Positions 1 to 8,051 are shown, counted from the first letter of the stretch. The stretch: DNA of 46,955 bases from a virus (IMGVR_UViG_643348547_000013), one strand, 5' to 3'. Translations and numbers: made by a program. Notes: generated from the letters alone by a model not told the origin.

Positions 1-90
1 TTGCCTCCCCCCCGTTGATGGGTAAAATAGCCGCAATTTTTCGTTTTCAACAAGCGCGGCGCGATGCCGCTTACTCAAGAAGAAAGAATT

Positions 91-165
91 ATGACGTTGT
101 CTCCTTATTTGCAAGAGGTGGCGAAGCGCCGCACTTTTGCCATTATTTCTCACCCCAATAATTAA
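91..165 (+). pseudogene. prfC: prfC (release factor RF3) 5' fragment, interrupted after codon 22 by the prophage
   Basis: ATG at 91 translates [22 protein letters not shown], which I recall as the RF3 N-terminus; after 'caccc' (about 155) the frame reads NN-stop instead of the expected GTPase P-loop, marking a host/phage junction. Confidence 0.65.
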
Positions 166-319
166 GCCTAAATTAAAGCTCTTTTACTCTTTCAAAATCC
201 TTTCAGTTAATTGAGGTTGAGCAATATAACTCATTTAAATACATTTAGTTATGTGGCTTCTTTAATTGAAAATTCTTTCATGTAACTTTAAATCGATCTG
301 CTTGCTTTCATCAAAAATC

Positions 320-379
320 TGTACATATGCTTGTACATAATGTACAAAGCAGCAGAGGTGTTTTGCGATTTGTACAAGG
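320..379. promoter_or_regulatory. cluster of four TGTACA motifs immediately upstream of the integrase start
   Basis: TGTACA at 320, 332, 341 and 371; the same TGTAC(A/C) half-site forms the palindrome between repressor and cro (8068-8086). Confidence 0.3.
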
Positions 380-385
380 TGAGTA

Positions 386-1609
386 ATGGCGCTGTCTGAT
401 GCGTGGTTGCGTTCAGTCGTTGGAAAGGAACGTGATAAGGTTTTGGTTAAATCCGATCGTGATGGTCTGTCTGTCAGAGTATCACCGAAAGGTCGCGTAG
501 TGTTCCAATATCGTTATCAATGGGCAGGGAAAGGTGAGCGTCTTGATATCGGAACTTACCCGGCAACTGGATTAAAAGAGGCCAGAGAAGAAGTTATCCG
601 TCTCCGTGGTGAACTCGAGTCAAACCGTAATCCACGATTGGTCAAGCAGGCTGAAAAACGAAAAGCTACTGAAGCCATGACGGTAGAGTCTGTGATCCGT
701 GCCTGGTATGAAGCATATTGTGTAAAAAATAAAAAAGGCTCTGAACAGATACTCCGCTCGTTTGAGCTGCACCTGTTCTCTAAAATCGGGAATATCCCTC
801 ACGATGCAGCTACATTGCATGATTGGTTAGAAGTCCTGGAGCCTCTTAGCACTAAGACTCCAGCAATAGCAGACCGATTGCTAATTAACGCAAAGCAGGC
901 CCATGTCTGGGCGTATAAGAGAAAGCTCATTGAAACTCGCCCGCTGTCGGATATCACGGGTAAAGATATGGATATCCGTAAAGGTCAGAAGAAACGGTTT
1001 CTGACACATGATGAAATTAAAATCCTTTATGCTGCGATCGATGGTTCTCGAATGGTTCCTAAATACCGGGCCTTCATTAAACTATTGCTGCATTTTGGCT
1101 GCCGTAGTTCAGAGCTAATTACCGCCAGGGTGGACGATTTTGATTTCATTAATAAAGTATGGACTGTACCACCAGAACGACATAAGACTGGGGAGATAAC
1201 GGGCGAACCGCTAAAACGGCCCATTATTGAACCGGTTGAAGAGCTTATAAAGTACGCTATTTCTATGAACAATGGTTCCGATATGCTTTTTACTAAGGAA
1301 GGAAGCAGGGAACCCGTTGGTCGGACATCATTGCAGTCGCTGCCTTACAATTTAATGCAGTATGCATGGCGGCGTTTGGGGTATCAATTCCCTCATTGGT
1401 CTCTGCATGATTTGAGGCGAACAGCACGAACAAACTTTTCTGATCTTACTGCGCCTCATATCGCAGAAATAATGCTCGGTCATAAACTGCCGGGGGTATG
1501 GCAAGTTTATGACAAGAGTGATTATTTAGAAGAACAGCGTAAAGCCTACCAGGCATGGTGGGAGAGAGTTGAATCGATTGTTACTTGTTCTGGTTCAGAC
1601 ACCAACTGA
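386..1609 (+). CDS. tyrosine site-specific integrase, P4/IntS-like
   Basis: 407-aa ORF with C-terminal HDLRRT...Y region typical of P4-family integrases; sits at the prophage/host junction. Confidence 0.9.
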   Translation: MALSDAWLRSVVGKERDKVLVKSDRDGLSVRVSPKGRVVFQYRYQWAGKGERLDIGTYPATGLKEAREEVIRLRGELESNRNPRLVKQAEKRKATEAMTVESVIRAWYEAYCVKNKKGSEQILRSFELHLFSKIGNIPHDAATLHDWLEVLEPLSTKTPAIADRLLINAKQAHVWAYKRKLIETRPLSDITGKDMDIRKGQKKRFLTHDEIKILYAAIDGSRMVPKYRAFIKLLLHFGCRSSELITARVDDFDFINKVWTVPPERHKTGEITGEPLKRPIIEPVEELIKYAISMNNGSDMLFTKEGSREPVGRTSLQSLPYNLMQYAWRRLGYQFPHWSLHDLRRTARTNFSDLTAPHIAEIMLGHKLPGVWQVYDKSDYLEEQRKAYQAWWERVESIVTCSGSDTN

Positions 1610-1781
1610 CAGTTTGCATATTTTGAACGCAATAAAATATGACAGTCCGCTTTGAGCGAGGAGCGGATATATGATGTTTAGAAAACGCGCGATTTGCAGT
1701 TAAGCAATCTAAGTTACTGATGTACTATACTGGAACTGCTGGCCAGTTTGTGTTGAACACCATCATTATCACAATAAGGAA

Positions 1782-3035
1782 ATGAAAGTCGAAATGAATA
1801 CTAAACTTTTGGCCTATTTAAACAATGAGTTACATGGAGTGTGGATAGATAGTGAAAATCGTAATATCCACATAATACTTAAATCAAGCCTTCCTATAAT
1901 TAAATCCGTCTGGTCAGGAGCACCTATCCACTTTTTGGTAGGTTTATCTACTAAAAATATACTAGTGATTGGGATGTTGATTGAAGATAATGTCGATAAT
2001 CCATTTTTACTAGCCTATCCACCAAGAGAGGCAGATGAAATTAAAGGGCTGGATTTGTTATTGTCAGGCGCTTATGATGGTATTCTATTATCATTTTTTG
2101 ACTCGCATACAATGCGTGTTATGGACCTGAAAATAAAAATTTCGGAAAATTTACCGTGTGAATGTTTAAAAAAATTTTGTGCTAATTCATATTCTCTCAA
2201 TTCAGGATTTAGGGAAGGTAATGAAGCAATGGATGAATTCTGCAACAATGCTTTGACTGGTAACGAGAAAATAATTAGTCTGCCACTAAGTGTAATCGAT
2301 AAAAAATCTTACCTAGCAAGTGTTCATGAACCAAACGATACCGTATTAACATATGAATTTAGCGTCAGTGAAAACGGCTCTGAGGGATATGAGCAGGAAG
2401 CTCTTATATACCATGCTTTGCGGCAGGTCTTTTCACCGGAGGAAGTGTTTTTTTCTCCAGATATTATTGAGGGTAATAAAAAAAGAGAACTAGTTGATAT
2501 TCTTATTGTAGAAAATGACTATGTATTATCTATACAGTCTAAAGCATCATCTTTGATTGAAATGGGTTTAAAATCTCATGAAAAGCTTTGTAGCATGTAT
2601 AAGAAAAAAGCATTGCAAGGGATCGATCAGGTTAAAGGCGTTATCCCAATTCTAAATAATGATGTGGTTATTAATTATGACGGGAGGGAATGCTTAATAA
2701 AGCGCAGAAAGGGTATTTATCATTTAGTGATAATCTCAGATCTTGTTTTAGAGAAAGAAGGTGCTGAAAAGATTTATAACGAAATTAGCAACCTTAAAGA
2801 GTCAAAAGGGGCGAAAGTTTTAGTTATGAGCCTTGAAGGTCTTGTAAATTTTATAAGACTATCAAGATTAAATAAAAGAATGTTTTGGGCAATGCTGGAG
2901 ACTAAATACAAGTTCAGCATAAAAAACCGTACAATTTTAATTAGAGATATCGACTCTAGCCAAGAGAATAATCTACCATTACTTGCCACTGATCAATACC
3001 TATCACTTCTTCGAGGTACGGGAAAATTAAAATAA
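1782..3035 (+). CDS. hypothetical protein, AT-rich orphan cargo gene between int and xis
   Basis: Uninterrupted 417-aa ORF, visibly AT-rich against GC-richer flanks, convergent with the downstream early operon; no family recognised; possible D239...E244...QSK254 nuclease-like motif. Confidence 0.6.
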   Translation: MKVEMNTKLLAYLNNELHGVWIDSENRNIHIILKSSLPIIKSVWSGAPIHFLVGLSTKNILVIGMLIEDNVDNPFLLAYPPREADEIKGLDLLLSGAYDGILLSFFDSHTMRVMDLKIKISENLPCECLKKFCANSYSLNSGFREGNEAMDEFCNNALTGNEKIISLPLSVIDKKSYLASVHEPNDTVLTYEFSVSENGSEGYEQEALIYHALRQVFSPEEVFFSPDIIEGNKKRELVDILIVENDYVLSIQSKASSLIEMGLKSHEKLCSMYKKKALQGIDQVKGVIPILNNDVVINYDGRECLIKRRKGIYHLVIISDLVLEKEGAEKIYNEISNLKESKGAKVLVMSLEGLVNFIRLSRLNKRMFWAMLETKYKFSIKNRTILIRDIDSSQENNLPLLATDQYLSLLRGTGKLK

Positions 3036-3320
3036 ATTGTATCAATGATACTGTTGCCACGTATCGAGACTGGCTTATGAACGGAAGGGTTTTCCAGCAG
3101 TTCAGCGACCGGAGCTGCACATCGATGCCGGATTGTGCCTGCAATTATGTACTTGGCTAAGAGGTGCTGCTGGCTCTGGATAGAATAACCCTAACGTCCA
3201 AAGAGCGCGCATTTTCATGTAAAAAAATAAATAGCTTGTCTGCTCTTGATACAGAGCAGACAGTCAGATCTGTTTGGCTTGTGCCATAGATGTGCCAGCT
3301 CACATTTGAGCTAATGTTTG

Positions 3321-3515
3321 TTACTCAATTACTCCTGCAAACCTGTATATCTTACGTGATGCCCATTTATTTGGGCAGGATTTAATATCAGGATCTGGAA
3401 AATCAGGCCGATATTTCTGACCAGTCCTCCGGTTTACACTGTTCCAGCGAAGCACCGTCGATATTGAAACGCCACAGAATTCGGCGACTTGTTTTGTTGT
3501 CATTAAGTTGTTCAT
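3321..3515 (-). CDS. excisionase / AlpA-like HTH DNA-binding protein
   Basis: Start chosen at internal Met (MNNLMTTKQVAEFCGVSISTVLRW) preceded by AGGAGGG; ATGA overlap with upstream gene stop; helix-turn-helix signature. Confidence 0.7.
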   Translation of the reverse strand: MNNLMTTKQVAEFCGVSISTVLRWNSVNRRTGQKYRPDFPDPDIKSCPNKWASRKIYRFAGVIE

Positions 3516-3859
3516 TGTTGACCCTCCTGTGGTTGTGCAGTTGAAAGACTCATGCCCGCGCGTTGTTGCCAGACGACCCAGCCGAGAGCCATATCCCACG
3601 CCATGTACTCGTTATCACCGTTTTTTGCTCTCCGACGATCGACTGTTTTACCGAAACGCTTTTCCATAAATAATTCATAGGCTGCGCGTTCATCTGGCTC
3701 AACTTCCAGAGATGCCAGTGCAATCCGTGCCAGTTCTAAATCATCTTCAAGCTCAGCGCGAATCTCAGCGAATGCACTCTGTGTTAAGGCGAACTCAATG
3801 CTCTGCACTTTATTCCGTGCGCGCTCAAGCAGTGCATGGTAGTTAATTTCGGTTGTCAT
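3512..3859 (-). CDS. hypothetical phage early protein
   Basis: 115-aa ORF with RBS (gaggtagg) and translational coupling to neighbours. Confidence 0.6.
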   Translation of the reverse strand: MTTEINYHALLERARNKVQSIEFALTQSAFAEIRAELEDDLELARIALASLEVEPDERAAYELFMEKRFGKTVDRRRAKNGDNEYMAWDMALGWVVWQQRAGMSLSTAQPQEGQQ

Positions 3860-4734
3860 ACCCCTACCTCTTCGAATTTCAATACCAATTGATCACCCCA
3901 GATTTCACATGACTCTGAACACGAGCCGGTATCGAATCGCCTGGCCTGTACCATCGCCTGATACAAATTTCTGTAGTCGCTGTTGGCAGACATTCTGGCA
4001 ATTCCGTCAAGCGTCAGGTGACCACGGTACATAACGTCTTTACCTGTTCTGCGATGACCATCCCTGACGTGTTTGCCTGTAACCAGCTCATTAAAAACTC
4101 GCATCAGACCAGGTTCGTCTTTACATGCAAGCCCCAGCTTTTGCGTTGACTTTTTGATGCAGAAAACACAGTTCCCGAGATGCTCCGGGATTTGCAAATC
4201 AAAAGGTTGTTTTCGCCACCACCGGATAACATCCGACTTATCAAAATCTGACAGTTCGGCAAGATACCGGACGCCCGATTTCGGTTTCAGCCTACGGGGT
4301 TCGTCTGCACGAATACCCAGCCATGTGATGTAATTACCTCGCCCGAAATGGTTATCGCAGTATTTCGTGAAAGGGATGAGTTTTAGCCTGTCAGTACAGA
4401 ACGCGCCGCCGATGTATGGCGTGCCGTACTTTTTAACCATGTCCATAAACGGTTTAAGTACCGACATTCGCGTCTGAATATCCTTTGGCTCCCATTCTGT
4501 ATAACCATTTGGCTGCCCAAGCTCAGGATTGATATCGACCTGCAACACAGTTAGTGGTATGCCCCAGAACTTCACAACCTCCCGAATAAAGCGGTATGTC
4601 AGCGGATGTTCGCAACCGGTATCCATAAAGATGTAGCAGACGTTATTGACAGCCTTTCTTTGTTCTTCCATCAGGTGAACAAGATATGCAGATGTTCTCC
4701 CGCCGGAAAAACTAACTACATGAGTTATGCACAT
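3856..4734 (-). CDS. PAPS-reductase-like (PP-loop ATP pyrophosphatase family) protein
   Basis: N-terminal SFSGGRTS PP-loop motif; GGAG RBS 9 nt upstream of ATG at 4734. Confidence 0.8.
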   Translation of the reverse strand: MCITHVVSFSGGRTSAYLVHLMEEQRKAVNNVCYIFMDTGCEHPLTYRFIREVVKFWGIPLTVLQVDINPELGQPNGYTEWEPKDIQTRMSVLKPFMDMVKKYGTPYIGGAFCTDRLKLIPFTKYCDNHFGRGNYITWLGIRADEPRRLKPKSGVRYLAELSDFDKSDVIRWWRKQPFDLQIPEHLGNCVFCIKKSTQKLGLACKDEPGLMRVFNELVTGKHVRDGHRRTGKDVMYRGHLTLDGIARMSANSDYRNLYQAMVQARRFDTGSCSESCEIWGDQLVLKFEEVGV

Positions 4735-4755
4735 TTGCGTAACTCCGATAACTCG

Positions 4756-5250
4756 TTAAAACGTTCCATAAACATCCCGTAGGCATGTCCTGGTGCCAGT
4801 GGAATCACTTTGAACATCGATACCTTCCAGTACAGGCCAGAAAGAGCCATCATCAAGCCCGAGATCGCGGCGTTCGGTTGCCAGCATAATGAGATCGGCA
4901 TATTTCACTGGCGTGCTCATAACAGGAGGTAACCCGTATTTCTCACGGATTACGGCGTCTATTTTTTCTTCCATCTGTTTATAGTCAGGAAGAAGGCGTT
5001 TCAGTGGCGCGGGGATGTCCTGACAATACGCTTCTGTTGCATCATGCATTAACGCTTCAAAAGCAAACTCCTCCGGAACCAGTTTGCTGCAAAGCACCGC
5101 ATGTTGGGCGACGCTGTAGAAGTGTGAAAGATGACCGGCAAAGCGACAGATATTTGAAAGGGAAACTGCGATATCGTTAATCACGATGTCGTCTTTATTT
5201 ATCCTGTCATAATAAAAATGCTTCCCGGAAAAAGTTTTAATAAATGACAT
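4756..5250 (-). CDS. yfdR: HD-domain phosphohydrolase (YfdR-like 5'-deoxynucleotidase family)
   Basis: H..H and HD motifs (HFYSVAQHAVL ... MHDATEAY); start set at internal Met (MSFIKTF) preceded by GGAG; the longer annotated start has no RBS. Confidence 0.7.
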   Translation of the reverse strand: MSFIKTFSGKHFYYDRINKDDIVINDIAVSLSNICRFAGHLSHFYSVAQHAVLCSKLVPEEFAFEALMHDATEAYCQDIPAPLKRLLPDYKQMEEKIDAVIREKYGLPPVMSTPVKYADLIMLATERRDLGLDDGSFWPVLEGIDVQSDSTGTRTCLRDVYGTF

Positions 5251-5378
5251 TTTGTTCTCCACTTTATATGCGCTGCACCGCGCTGAATTTTGGTTAAAGA
5301 AAACCCTCGCCATCAGGCGATTATTGAGTTAATTACGTTTCCATAAATGCCCCCGCAGGGGCATTTGCAGTAATGAAA

Positions 5379-6203
5379 TCAGGCGGTGAAAGTACCAATA
5401 AAGGTTTCTACTTTGCTGTCTTTGAATTTTTCAACAAGCAGATCACGAAATTCGTTAGCCATTTCTTCCTGCACTGCTTCCAGCTGAATAATGCGCAGAA
5501 CCAGTACAGGGCGATCACCAGTGATAATGCTGAGGCGTAATTTAAACGGACGTTCTTTCAGGCCTTCAAACGGAACGCATTTAAACTCAAATGCTACTGG
5601 CATAATGTCTTTGGTTTTCGCTTCGACAGACTCCATCAGAGAGCGTTTGCCGCTGAAGTCATTGTCTTCAAAATCAGCGGTCTGGTTTGCTTCAATCGTG
5701 ATTTTACGGACCGCCGCAGCCGCTTTTGTTGCCTGAATGGCGTCACCATTAGCATCAAAGCCCACAAGGTAGTCGGCCCAGTCTTCAATCCATTCTGCCA
5801 GTGACTTCTGGGAGTTACGCTCGCCGTTAACAGACAACAGGGCAGAGAACGGTGCTGTCTTTTTCAGTTTGAGAGTGGCGGTGTTATCTGCGTGACCTGG
5901 TTCATCAATAGTACCCAGGTTAAGCACACTGACGGCTCGCATATTATCAGCATCGATAAAGCAGCGGGTGCCTTCATCTGCAAGATCTTTAGAATAACGG
6001 GTAAAGTCATCGATGCTGGCAGTGGAAAGCGCACCACGGAAACGGAAGCGATTTAAATTAAATTTTTCCAGATCATGAATGCGGAAATTCTCAGGCAATG
6101 CCACAGCATCGGCACCAATCTTACTGATAATTTCATTAACACCCTGAGCAGAAATAAGGGCATGGATTTGATTAATTGCGGTTGCGTCTAAGTTCTGAGA
6201 CAT
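5379..6203 (-). CDS. yfdQ: YfdQ-like protein (DUF2303 family), CPS-53-type early gene
   Basis: 274-aa ORF, length and recalled sequence match the CPS-53 prophage YfdQ. Confidence 0.75.
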
Positions 6204-6268
6204 AATAAGTCCTCACTATATAAAGATATTCAGTGATGAGATAAATAATCAGTTTATTAAAAACGATA

Positions 6269-6631
6269 TTAACGACCTGCTGCGCGGAGTTTTCCGTCAG
6301 GTTCACCGGCAAGAGTCAGTAATTGTCCCTGGTCTTCCTGCAGAATAGTCAGGCGACCACCGCGATTGACATACATCGGCGTTTCGGTGGTGTCTTCTTC
6401 GGAAATTTTCCCGCGGTTAGTCGGGCGAACATATGAGAGTTTGTGTTTGATTTTTACACGGTTCTCATCAAACGGTTCGATTTCCAGGTTGAGCGAGACC
6501 TTACCTTTGGTTTTCGTGTTCATCACACCGGAAGCGACTTCACTGAGAACAGCGCCGATTTTGGTTTCAAATACGCCGCCGTCCAGCTCCCCGATAAATG
6601 CCTGCACATCAGTACTGCGTTCGCTAGCCAT
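6269..6631 (-). CDS. yfdP: YfdP-like protein
   Basis: 120-aa product from Met (MASERSTDV) preceded by GAGGAG; the longer ORF-track version (to 6817) is an unsupported N-terminal extension. Confidence 0.7.
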   Translation of the reverse strand: MASERSTDVQAFIGELDGGVFETKIGAVLSEVASGVMNTKTKGKVSLNLEIEPFDENRVKIKHKLSYVRPTNRGKISEEDTTETPMYVNRGGRLTILQEDQGQLLTLAGEPDGKLRAAGR

Positions 6632-7308
6632 TTTGCTGCTCCTCATCATATCGACCCCGCAAGGTCGGTTGGTTTCTCCACAAAACAGAGAAGAACACCA
6701 GCGGTGGCAGCCGCCCGGATGGATTGGGTTATGAGCCCGTCGTCCGGTGATGCCCTTCTCTGTTTTGTAAAAAGAGCGGTACCAGCCGGAAGCAAGTGTA
6801 CAAACTGGTACCGCCAAAGCAGTGGCTGTTGTGGTGACCGGTGCTGATCTCCGGCTTGCGGTTATTTCAGACTCTCACGGGCGTTTAATTGCCCCGCCGA
6901 ACAGCTCTTTTCCGCAATAGCTGCAATGTCTTTCGCGCATCAGCCTGCGCATTCACCACAACGCTGAGAGCATTGCCGGTGTCCGAATCGAACGGACCTT
7001 TTCCCTGCCCAACCCTCCCATCTGAATGGGACTGTCTGGAATTGAACCAGCACTTATGCCTTGCTCGTCAATGCTCTCATCGTTGCGTCCTGGTCTCTTC
7101 CCAAGCGTCAAACCGAATCGCCACGCTGGTTAGGCGTCTTATCAGCATCCTCATTGACTTGCACATTCCGGCTACCTGGTTTGTTTGCCCGAGCAAGGAG
7201 TGGATTATCCCCTTTAACGTCCCCAGACCGCTAACGACGCATGTGCCATACGCCGTGTTACAACCAAATTTTGTTTGAATCTTGCCTGCCTCATGTTTCT
7301 TTTGGATA

Positions 7309-7337
7309 CATTATGTATCTCAAGGGTACATTGTCAA
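7309..7337 (-). promoter_or_regulatory. candidate leftward early promoter (pL-like)
   Basis: On the minus strand TTGACA (plus 7332-7337), 17-nt spacer, CATAAT (plus 7309-7314); overlaps the 15-bp perfect palindrome GATACATTATGTATC (7304-7318). Confidence 0.4.
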
Positions 7338-7341
7338 GTAT

Positions 7342-7363
7342 AAAAAAACCTGCCGAAGCAGGT
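7342..7363 (-). terminator. rho-independent terminator downstream of the repressor gene
   Basis: Hairpin ACCTGC-CGAA-GCAGGT followed by a U7 run on the minus strand, just past the repressor stop. Confidence 0.5.
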
Positions 7364-7376
7364 TCATAAATATTGA

Positions 7377-8051
7377 TTAGGCCTTTATTGTGTATCTTCT
7401 TGGTTTTCCCGAGAAAATCACTGTACCAATTATAGAGCAATTACCGTTAATCTTAATGTAAGGCTCAGGCCAGTTTGGGTTTAATGCTTTGAGATAACGC
7501 TGTGTTCCATCTTCTATCAACCGCTTGAAGGTGGTTTCGCCTGAATCGTGCATCAATGCAATAACGTCGTCACCGTGGCAGGCAGGGACTTCAGGATCAA
7601 CAAAAATCATGTCTCCCGGGCGGTACTCATCAATCATTGAATCACCAATCACCCGCAAGATATAAGTCATTTCGCCACAGGGTACAGGGCAGGGATAAGT
7701 TTCTGCTGTGCTCAAATCAACCTCAGAATAGCCAACTTCTTTCCATGCTCCGGCCTGTACCCATGATATGACAGGGACTAACGTTATTTGTTTGTTAGTG
7801 ATTGAAACATCAGGTTTTTTTGTGATGTTCGTGGTCTGGTGTTCTTGATCAAGCCATCCGACAGGCAGGTCGAAACATTTTTCGATGTGCCTTGCCATGC
7901 TGTCACCGATATTTTTAGTAGCACCATCTCCCATAAACCTGCTGGTCTGGGTTGGCTCGCGATCAATCATGGTGGCAAAGGAAGAATTCCCGCCAACACC
8001 ATCTCTCAGTTTTCTGGCGTTAGACCGCCGGATGTCATGGACTGTTTTCAT
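7377..8051 (-). CDS. CI-type phage repressor, LexA/S24 peptidase family
   Basis: 224-aa ORF with C-terminal S24 autopeptidase region (ILRVIGDSM...); divergent from cro-like gene. Confidence 0.85.
   Translation of the reverse strand: MKTVHDIRRSNARKLRDGVGGNSSFATMIDREPTQTSRFMGDGATKNIGDSMARHIEKCFDLPVGWLDQEHQTTNITKKPDVSITNKQITLVPVISWVQAGAWKEVGYSEVDLSTAETYPCPVPCGEMTYILRVIGDSMIDEYRPGDMIFVDPEVPACHGDDVIALMHDSGETTFKRLIEDGTQRYLKALNPNWPEPYIKINGNCSIIGTVIFSGKPRRYTIKA

Follow-up and report, generated by a model that had tools for sequence, protein, structure and literature searches.

What does the AT-rich gene directly 3' of the integrase gene in the viral sequence IMGVR_UViG_643348547_000013 do for the prophage that carries it? 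The stretch analysed, called the window here, comprises 46,955 nucleotides, and the gene, an open reading frame (ORF) of 417 amino acids (aa), is referred to as the cargo gene. An earlier note, made from the DNA sequence alone, had located it between the integrase gene (int) and a presumed excisionase gene (xis), had recognised no family, and had pointed with reservation to a degenerate nuclease core of the PD-(D/E)xK type. The answer that we favour, at a probability of roughly 0.55, is that the cargo protein is a stand-alone anti-phage sensor-nuclease carried as lysogenic-conversion cargo. Two lines of evidence are central to this reading, a predicted nuclease domain in the protein's C-terminal half and the position of the gene in a slot that is otherwise occupied by defence genes.

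The cargo gene and its predicted nuclease domain

The ORF is a real gene under purifying selection. A run of 417 codons without a stop has a probability of ~1.6e-14 at the gene's own GC content of 34%, and the ratio of nonsynonymous to synonymous substitution rates (dN/dS) is 0.29 relative to a 91%-identical copy on a Salmonella plasmid. Copies of at least 99% identity and full gene length are present in 75 of 5,426 complete Escherichia coli genomes, one per genome and always on the chromosome. The earlier estimate of "about one third GC" agrees with the measured value of 33.8% (28.3% at third codon positions, GC3), compared to 45.4% for the integrase gene and 50.1% for the window; all enterobacterial copies fall between 32 and 35%, independent of the host. 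The start is slightly ambiguous, because an AAGGA sequence lies 1 nucleotide before the first ATG and 13 nucleotides before the second, at position 1794. The second (M5) is the likelier start and results in a protein of 413 aa; it is used in the PGAP annotation WP_016240718.1, and the N-termini of most homologues align with it.

Composition and upstream region could also be read as signs of AT-rich cargo that is silenced by H-NS or decaying, or of a toxin-like addiction gene, in each case contributing nothing to phage resistance at present. In this direction point the strongly AT-rich sequence, a promoter scan that found no sigma-70-like promoter above chance upstream of the gene, a Klebsiella copy truncated by IS5, and a 268-aa truncated variant of the protein on 26 contigs. 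Set against the purifying selection, the 75 genomes with nearly identical full-length copies, the catalytic residues that are invariant in all relatives aligned (see below), and the finding of no conserved antitoxin-like small neighbour, we regard such an explanation as very improbable.

Conservation was evaluated by aligning 124 full-length relatives. E206, D239, K254, and Q283 are the four invariant columns, while K34, D69, G202, P226, E236, and G286 are conserved in at least 90% of the sequences. Position 252 is occupied by E in 95 relatives, by Q in 27, including the entire enterobacterial clade, and by S in 2. The family signature thus reads E206...D239-x12-(E/Q)252-x-K254...Q283, and with this catalytic signature and a predicted alpha-beta-beta-beta-alpha-beta core fold the protein shows two of the features that define the PD-(D/E)xK superfamily. 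The peptide quoted in the earlier note, VDILIVENDYVLSIQSK, is present in the protein and comprises residues 238 to 254 rather than 239 to 254. The nuclease signature suspected there was recovered, albeit as a complete set (E206/D239/(E or Q)252-x-K254/Q283) and not as a degenerate one; E244, which had been proposed as a catalytic residue, has to be dropped, as E occurs at this position in merely 14 of the 124 relatives.

An initial AlphaFold2 model computed from 14 sequences was mediocre, with a predicted local distance difference test (pLDDT) of 67, and was superseded by a model based on 103 sequences (pLDDT, 82.7; predicted template modelling score [pTM], 0.78), which places the catalytic residues on the canonical alpha-beta-beta-beta-alpha elements. 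In fold comparisons, this model scored highest with the small subunit of R.BspD6I (12.4), FokI (12.3), and N.BspD6I (12.3), followed by HindIII (9.4), Can2 (8.8), Upx (8.7), McrC (7.9), Shedu SduA (7.1), and HamA (5.8), and Foldseek was in agreement with this ranking. The comparison with PD-(D/E)xK and Shedu folds that had been recommended earlier consequently yielded a restriction-enzyme-type fold, one that is nearer to FokI/BspD6I than to SduA. Judged by its residues and by the model, the C-terminal half is predicted to be a domain with an intact PD-(D/E)xK active site and a FokI/BspD6I-like fold.

At the sequence level, the closest family is NERD (PF08378). In a Pfam scan of the 124 relatives, from which the best 25 of 74 families were listed, NERD was detected in 47 relatives (best E value, 3.7e-5) and was, besides Hjc (7 of 124), the sole recurring family among those listed; one relative scored 21.9 bits, the cut-off being 22.1. 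The cargo protein itself does not match NERD at E ≤ 10 and stays below the gathering threshold; a kinship with this family is plausible. The profile searches suggested in the earlier note therefore returned weak NERD matches, whereas DUF4263, the Shedu family considered there, was not among the best 25 of the 74 families. The nuclease domain is accordingly best described as a putative NERD-like, FokI-cleavage-like domain just beyond the reach of current family models.

A slot with exchangeable cargo next to the integrase

The gene lies on the same strand as int and faces the minus-strand genes that begin at position 3321, i.e., it is convergent to the early operon, as the earlier note had described, and its assignment to a position for accessory cargo was likewise borne out. 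In blastn comparisons with cdtI, Ayreon, 2H10, PhiR63_1, and an Stx2c phage, homology to the window is lost at positions 1588 to 1651, just after the int stop codon, and regained at positions 3238 to 3251; the cargo gene therefore fills a slot of ~1.6 kb. The same integrase is encoded in 700 of the 5,426 complete E. coli genomes (13%) and the cargo gene in 75, so that approximately one in nine such prophages carries it. Other prophages sampled at the prfC site hold other cargo in this slot.

Sixteen prophages and phages with the same integrase were sampled, and they contain at least 11 cargo alleles, the cargo gene included (Table 1). Four of these are defence systems confirmed by PADLOC. For P2 and P4, a defence hotspot is understood as a small locus with conserved phage genes on either side and a high turnover of cargo that includes defence systems (PMC9122126). 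The int-proximal slot is a hotspot of this type, and since four known single-gene defence systems are among its alleles, it is a defence hotspot; because Borvo, dGTPase, dCTP deaminase, and Dsr1 share the slot with them, the six further alleles are candidate defence genes. For the cargo gene, the slot position strongly suggests a candidate defence role. The four established systems reside, like the cargo gene, as single-gene cargo directly 3' of the same integrase in lambdoid prophages at prfC, but as a protease (Borvo, BovA), enzymes of nucleotide depletion, and an NADase, they have neither sequence nor fold in common with the cargo protein, and the link is positional only. With four known systems and at least six unknown alleles in ~1.6 kb, the slot offers a cheap hunting ground for defence genes, similar to the P2/P4 hotspots.

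Relatives, N-terminal domain, and proposed mode of action

The lack of a recognisable family stated in the earlier note was confirmed, as the cargo protein had no match in Pfam, NCBIfam, or PADLOC, and its sole family match was PHROG 30399, whose function is unknown. A word-indexed search of 5.8 billion proteins returned 13 clusters from Enterobacterales only, whereas scanning 1.84 billion representatives exhaustively with HMMER returned 138 clusters at E ≤ 1e-3, nearly all of ~400 aa and aligned from end to end. A profile search added ~90 further clusters from Burkholderia, Ralstonia, Sphingomonas, Labrys, and other Proteobacteria, all named "hypothetical" and without a precomputed Pfam domain. 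The PADLOC scan of the 124 relatives gave scattered single weak matches to 15 families (E ≥ 6e-4). Sequence-profile searches of the PDB with the 14- and 124-sequence alignments produced chance matches or none, a fold search of the viral BFVD was uninformative, tblastn found no copy of the cargo gene in a phage genome collection of 50,697 records, and no mention of WP_016240718.1 was found in the literature searched.

Fourteen genomic contexts of homologues were compared. In Morganella, the gene is preceded, at the end of a prophage, by an integrase and a PD-T7-1 protein (1.6e-156); the copy in a P2-like prophage (L005, 8001-10667) adjoins a DUF6602/PD_DExK protein; and a Yersinia plasmid carries a copy that has Mrr_cat, PLDc_2, and HEPN genes as neighbours. 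The Salmonella copy neighbours IS110 on a 110-kb IncFIB plasmid, which we read as a phage-plasmid and which also encodes a Rha regulator, a phage adenine methyltransferase, and a thymidylate synthase. Ralstonia copies follow an integrase and have an OLD-family ATPase-nuclease close by, while a metagenomic copy adjoins HipA, with an integrase ~3 kb upstream. Five distant relatives are lone genes amid unrelated housekeeping genes, with no shared synteny and no mobile or defence neighbours. No conserved neighbour or partner gene was found across the 14 contexts. A methyltransferase is not adjacent in the window, and none was found in 13 of the 14 homologue contexts; the only one nearby, of the phage adenine type, lies ~1.2 kb away on the Salmonella plasmid and recurs in no other context. 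The family is thus a patchy, mobile, single-gene element, whose association with defence genes is evident within the enterobacterial clade and less pronounced among the other relatives.

Two of these contexts have features of their own. In the degraded P2-like prophage, tail genes S and V enclose the homologue together with the DUF6602/PD_DExK protein, and this insertion site differs from the gpA-gpQ (old/tin) hotspot (PMC9122126); the genes from baseplate to tail sheath are apparently deleted. In Burkholderia ubonensis (L013, 8966-14857), the homologue is followed by an unusual giant ATPase of 1,963 aa that carries UvrA-like as well as several P-loop signatures.

The cargo gene could also encode a nuclease in the service of its mobile element, be it a selfish, homing-type endonuclease that spreads itself into variable slots or an enzyme for recombination or for degradation of host DNA during lytic growth. 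In favour of this are the unrelated insertion contexts of the family (prophages of the lambdoid and P2-like kinds, plasmids, and isolated chromosomal positions amid housekeeping genes), often next to insertion sequences or integrases, and the constant AT-rich composition across hosts, which points to horizontal mobility. The cargo gene, however, runs counter to the early lytic operon and is located outside of it, it is an alternative to four bona fide defence genes and not to recombination genes, and the conserved early-gene set of the prophage is independent of the cargo, all of which makes a service to the element distinctly unlikely.

The N-terminal part of the protein is modelled as a separate alpha+beta domain. 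It has no profile match in the PDB and, among the families listed, no Pfam match in any of the 124 relatives; in fold searches with the whole chain, the nuclease half dominated the results. Across the family, the domain is acidic, with a median isoelectric point (pI) of 5.06, a net charge of -7.5, and a pI below 6 in 90% of the members, whereas the nuclease half is neutral to basic. This charge weakly favours a regulatory or sensor role over that of a classical basic domain for DNA recognition. An apparent clue to the fold, 20 matches of residues 51 to 133 to a 2,283-aa protein (P0133), was rejected as spurious: the identities are 23 to 25%, and the protein is a surface protein of the type IX secretion system (T9SS) that contains a repeat of 51 residues. 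The predicted disordered C-terminal tail contains the motif D389-x-D-S-S-x-E-x-N-L-P, which is invariant in the enterobacterial clade only and not kept in the wide family; it may represent a clade-specific interaction or regulatory peptide.

Without a methyltransferase, the nuclease must spare the host in some way, either by being held inactive until triggered or by being selective for modified or foreign DNA. The latter would correspond to a Type IV-like modification-dependent endonuclease, constitutively active, with an N-terminal domain that reads a modified base (hydroxymethylcytosine [hmC], glucosyl-hmC, or another hypermodification) and with unmodified host and prophage DNA being spared while modified phage DNA is cut. 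Such an enzyme would fit a nuclease that stands alone, lacking a methyltransferase in 13 of 14 contexts, a cleavage module that is FokI-like and non-specific and joined to a second domain, and distant relatives that occur as lone chromosomal genes, as do Mrr and McrA; the D-x12-QxK form of the motif in the enterobacterial clade is reminiscent of the QxK variant of the Mrr/MspJI type. Nevertheless, neither SRA, EVE, and YTH nor any other known reader domain figured among the Pfam families that the scan of the 124 relatives listed, and an N-terminal domain as acidic as this one would be unusual for a DNA-binding reader, so that we consider this enzyme type unlikely.

Autoinhibition with a trigger is weakly favoured over constitutive modification-dependent restriction because of the acidic N-terminal domain and the need for oligomerisation in FokI-like enzymes. 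For the sensor-nuclease, we envisage that the acidic N-terminal ~195 aa would serve as a sensor or regulatory module that keeps the otherwise non-specific cleavage domain idle or away from the host chromosome. Upon superinfection, a phage-derived cue, whether protein, DNA structure, or unusual DNA chemistry, would lift this control; activation would probably proceed via oligomerisation, as in FokI and Shedu, and the activated nuclease would cut DNA, with the invader being destroyed directly or the infection being aborted. Neither a methyltransferase nor another partner would be needed by the nuclease.

A number of points weigh against this sensor-nuclease reading, the result of the promoter scan being one of them. 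PADLOC-DB v2.0.0 contains no model for the protein (0 matches with the query), and neither the accession nor the sequence motifs of the family appear in the searched part of the DefensePredictor supplements. The five lone distant relatives indicate that the association with defence is not universal, and the exchange of E for Q at position 252 in the enterobacterial clade could alter or lower the activity. Moreover, the role of the N-terminal domain as a sensor is one that we purely infer. Somewhat short of an even chance, and to be taken as tentative, is the more far-reaching proposal that the cargo protein is the founder of an unnamed single-gene anti-phage system with patchy occurrence in Alpha-, Beta-, and Gammaproteobacteria, that it combines a new acidic infection sensor with a FokI-like domain, and that the slot of the prfC lambdoid prophages is an undescribed hotspot whose six unknown alleles are new systems.

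Among known systems, the closest structures (FokI, the R.BspD6I small subunit, and Nt.BspD6I) share merely 11 to 12% identity with the cargo protein, with no match at the sequence level. The cargo protein differs from FokI/BspD6I by its family-specific E...D...(E/Q)xK...Q signature with Q or E at position 252, from the recognition domains of FokI by its unrelated acidic N-terminal domain, and from FokI-type IIS enzymes by having no cognate methyltransferase. Shedu, whose N-terminal sensor domains are diverse, is closest in logic, since its nuclease, a tetramer, is under the control of such domains (bioRxiv 10.1101/2023.08.10.552793), but SduA is not the closest structural neighbour, the fold being clearly nearer to FokI/BspD6I, and was not among the 15 PADLOC families matched; furthermore, the order of elements in the N-terminal part of the model does not follow the beta-beta-beta-beta-alpha sPC4/Whirly repeat of Type 1A Shedu when compared by eye. 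ZwsA of Pseudomonas is a stand-alone NERD defence nuclease with residues E535, D567, E580, and K582 (bioRxiv 10.64898/2026.04.06.716636) and shares the E/D/ExK pattern with the cargo protein; unlike the latter, it has a VHS-DUF647-NERD-S4 architecture, is far larger, and cleaves the genomes of RNA phages. DefensePredictor includes NERD proteins of 532 and 463 aa, the latter with NERD nearer to the N-terminus (~154-212), and in this 2026 machine-learning screen 42 E. coli systems were validated, 13 of them with PD-(D/E)xK domains. With Mrr, MspJI/AspBHI, and McrBC, there is similarity at the superfamily level only, the cargo protein having an acidic N-terminal domain and no known reader domain detected. 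The CARF/SAVED effectors Can2, Card1, and Cap4 are set apart as well, since a cyclase or CRISPR neighbour was seen in no context of the family and since the recurring families listed for the 124 relatives include neither CARF nor SAVED nor another sensor family.

New in this comparison are the unnamed family, the candidate sensor domain without a known relative, and the undescribed hotspot, whereas the catalytic fold is known. Prophage-borne PD-(D/E)xK nucleases are a common theme, with thousands of similar candidates predicted; the cargo gene is unsurprising in kind, nucleases of this general type being expected on prophages. If protective, the protein would add a new family to the single-protein sensor-nucleases (Shedu, Upx, and ZwsA), and, as its sensor domain has no known relative, the question of the trigger would be directly testable through escape mutants.

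Further features of the window

Table 1. Positions of the cargo gene, its predicted domains, neighbouring features of the window, and alternative cargo of the slot (alleles with their own contig coordinates where given)
Feature	Position	Strand	Remarks
Tyrosine integrase, left slot boundary	386..1609	+	Pfam Phage_integrase 1e-17, Arm-DNA-bind_3, Phage_int_M
Variable cargo slot, ~1.6 kb	1610..3237		int stop codon to resumed sister-phage homology
Cargo ORF, 417 aa	1782..3035	+	stop codon included; from ORF list
N-terminal alpha+beta domain (model), aa 5-195	1794..2366	+	pLDDT mostly 75-93; acidic; K34, K41, D69, P74 conserved
Predicted C-terminal PD-(D/E)xK nuclease domain, aa 200-385	2379..2936	+	FokI/R.BspD6I cleavage-domain-like
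E206, invariant acidic residue, helix alpha1	2397..2399	+	124/124; helix 202-214 of model; codon checked
D239-x12-Q252-S-K254 core, strands beta2 and beta3	2496..2543	+	D239 and K254 124/124; strands 240-244 and 247-254; codons checked
Q283, invariant Gln, helix after the ExK strand	2628..2630	+	124/124; helix 266-291; followed by G286 (121/124)
C-terminal tail, aa 386-417	2937..3032	+	predicted disordered; pLDDT <50 for residues 389-400
Terminator-like hairpin, 10-bp stem, 5 GC pairs	3237..3262	-	terminator scan; downstream of leftward early genes
Small HTH protein, putative AlpA-like excisionase, right slot boundary	3321..3599	-	HTH_17 E=8.8e-4, under Pfam cut-off
115-aa ORF	3512..3859	-	
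PAPS-reductase-family protein	3856..4734	-	Pfam PAPS_reduct 5.9e-9
Slot allele BovA/Borvo	cdtI, Ayreon		PADLOC 2.3e-241
Slot allele dGTPase	two strains		PADLOC 3.5e-105
Slot allele dCTP deaminase			PADLOC 2.8e-163
Slot allele Dsr1	intact in one strain, IS-cut in another		PADLOC E=0
Slot allele, 239-aa protein	L007 2282-3001		no PADLOC, no Pfam match
Slot allele, 271-aa protein	L022 5879-6694		no PADLOC match
Slot allele, 331-aa protein	L021 6091-7086		no PADLOC match
Slot allele, 342-aa protein	L028 5000-6028		no PADLOC match
Slot allele, 377- and 121-aa proteins	L009 1627-3216		no PADLOC, no Pfam match
Slot allele, 517-aa protein	L008 2046-3599		no PADLOC, no Pfam match

At its left end, the window begins within the 5' end of prfC (positions 90 to 160, with the translation readable from 90), the integration site of this prophage family, and positions 90 to 160 are the prophage's left attachment junction; in all lysogens sampled, RefSeq shows a truncated ORF of 69 nucleotides at the prfC junction. 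At the right boundary of the slot, the strong terminator-like hairpin coincides with the right homology breakpoint and probably ends the leftward early operon, thereby insulating the convergent cargo gene. The neighbour called xis in the earlier note is a helix-turn-helix (HTH) protein, labelled "helix-turn-helix domain-containing protein" in sister prophages, whereas its identity as an excisionase is weak. An Rfam scan of window positions 1 to 8000 gave no RNA family above threshold; a match to the small RNA STnc100 at positions 5207 to 5387 on the minus strand, between yfdR and yfdQ, reached 23 bits versus a gathering threshold of 47 (E = 0.086) and is probably due to chance.

To the right of the xis-like gene, a second mosaic module (positions 3530 to 4726) comprises the 115-aa ORF and the gene for the PAPS-reductase-family protein. 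A pairing of the latter with the nuclease in the manner of a restriction-modification system was considered and rejected, the module being present in 433 E. coli genomes versus 75 for the cargo gene and in no homologue context. Given its occurrence in these 433 genomes and at 72 plasmid places, the module moves independently of the nuclease. Sister phages have DUF551 proteins in its place, including one wrongly annotated as "valyl-tRNA synthetase."

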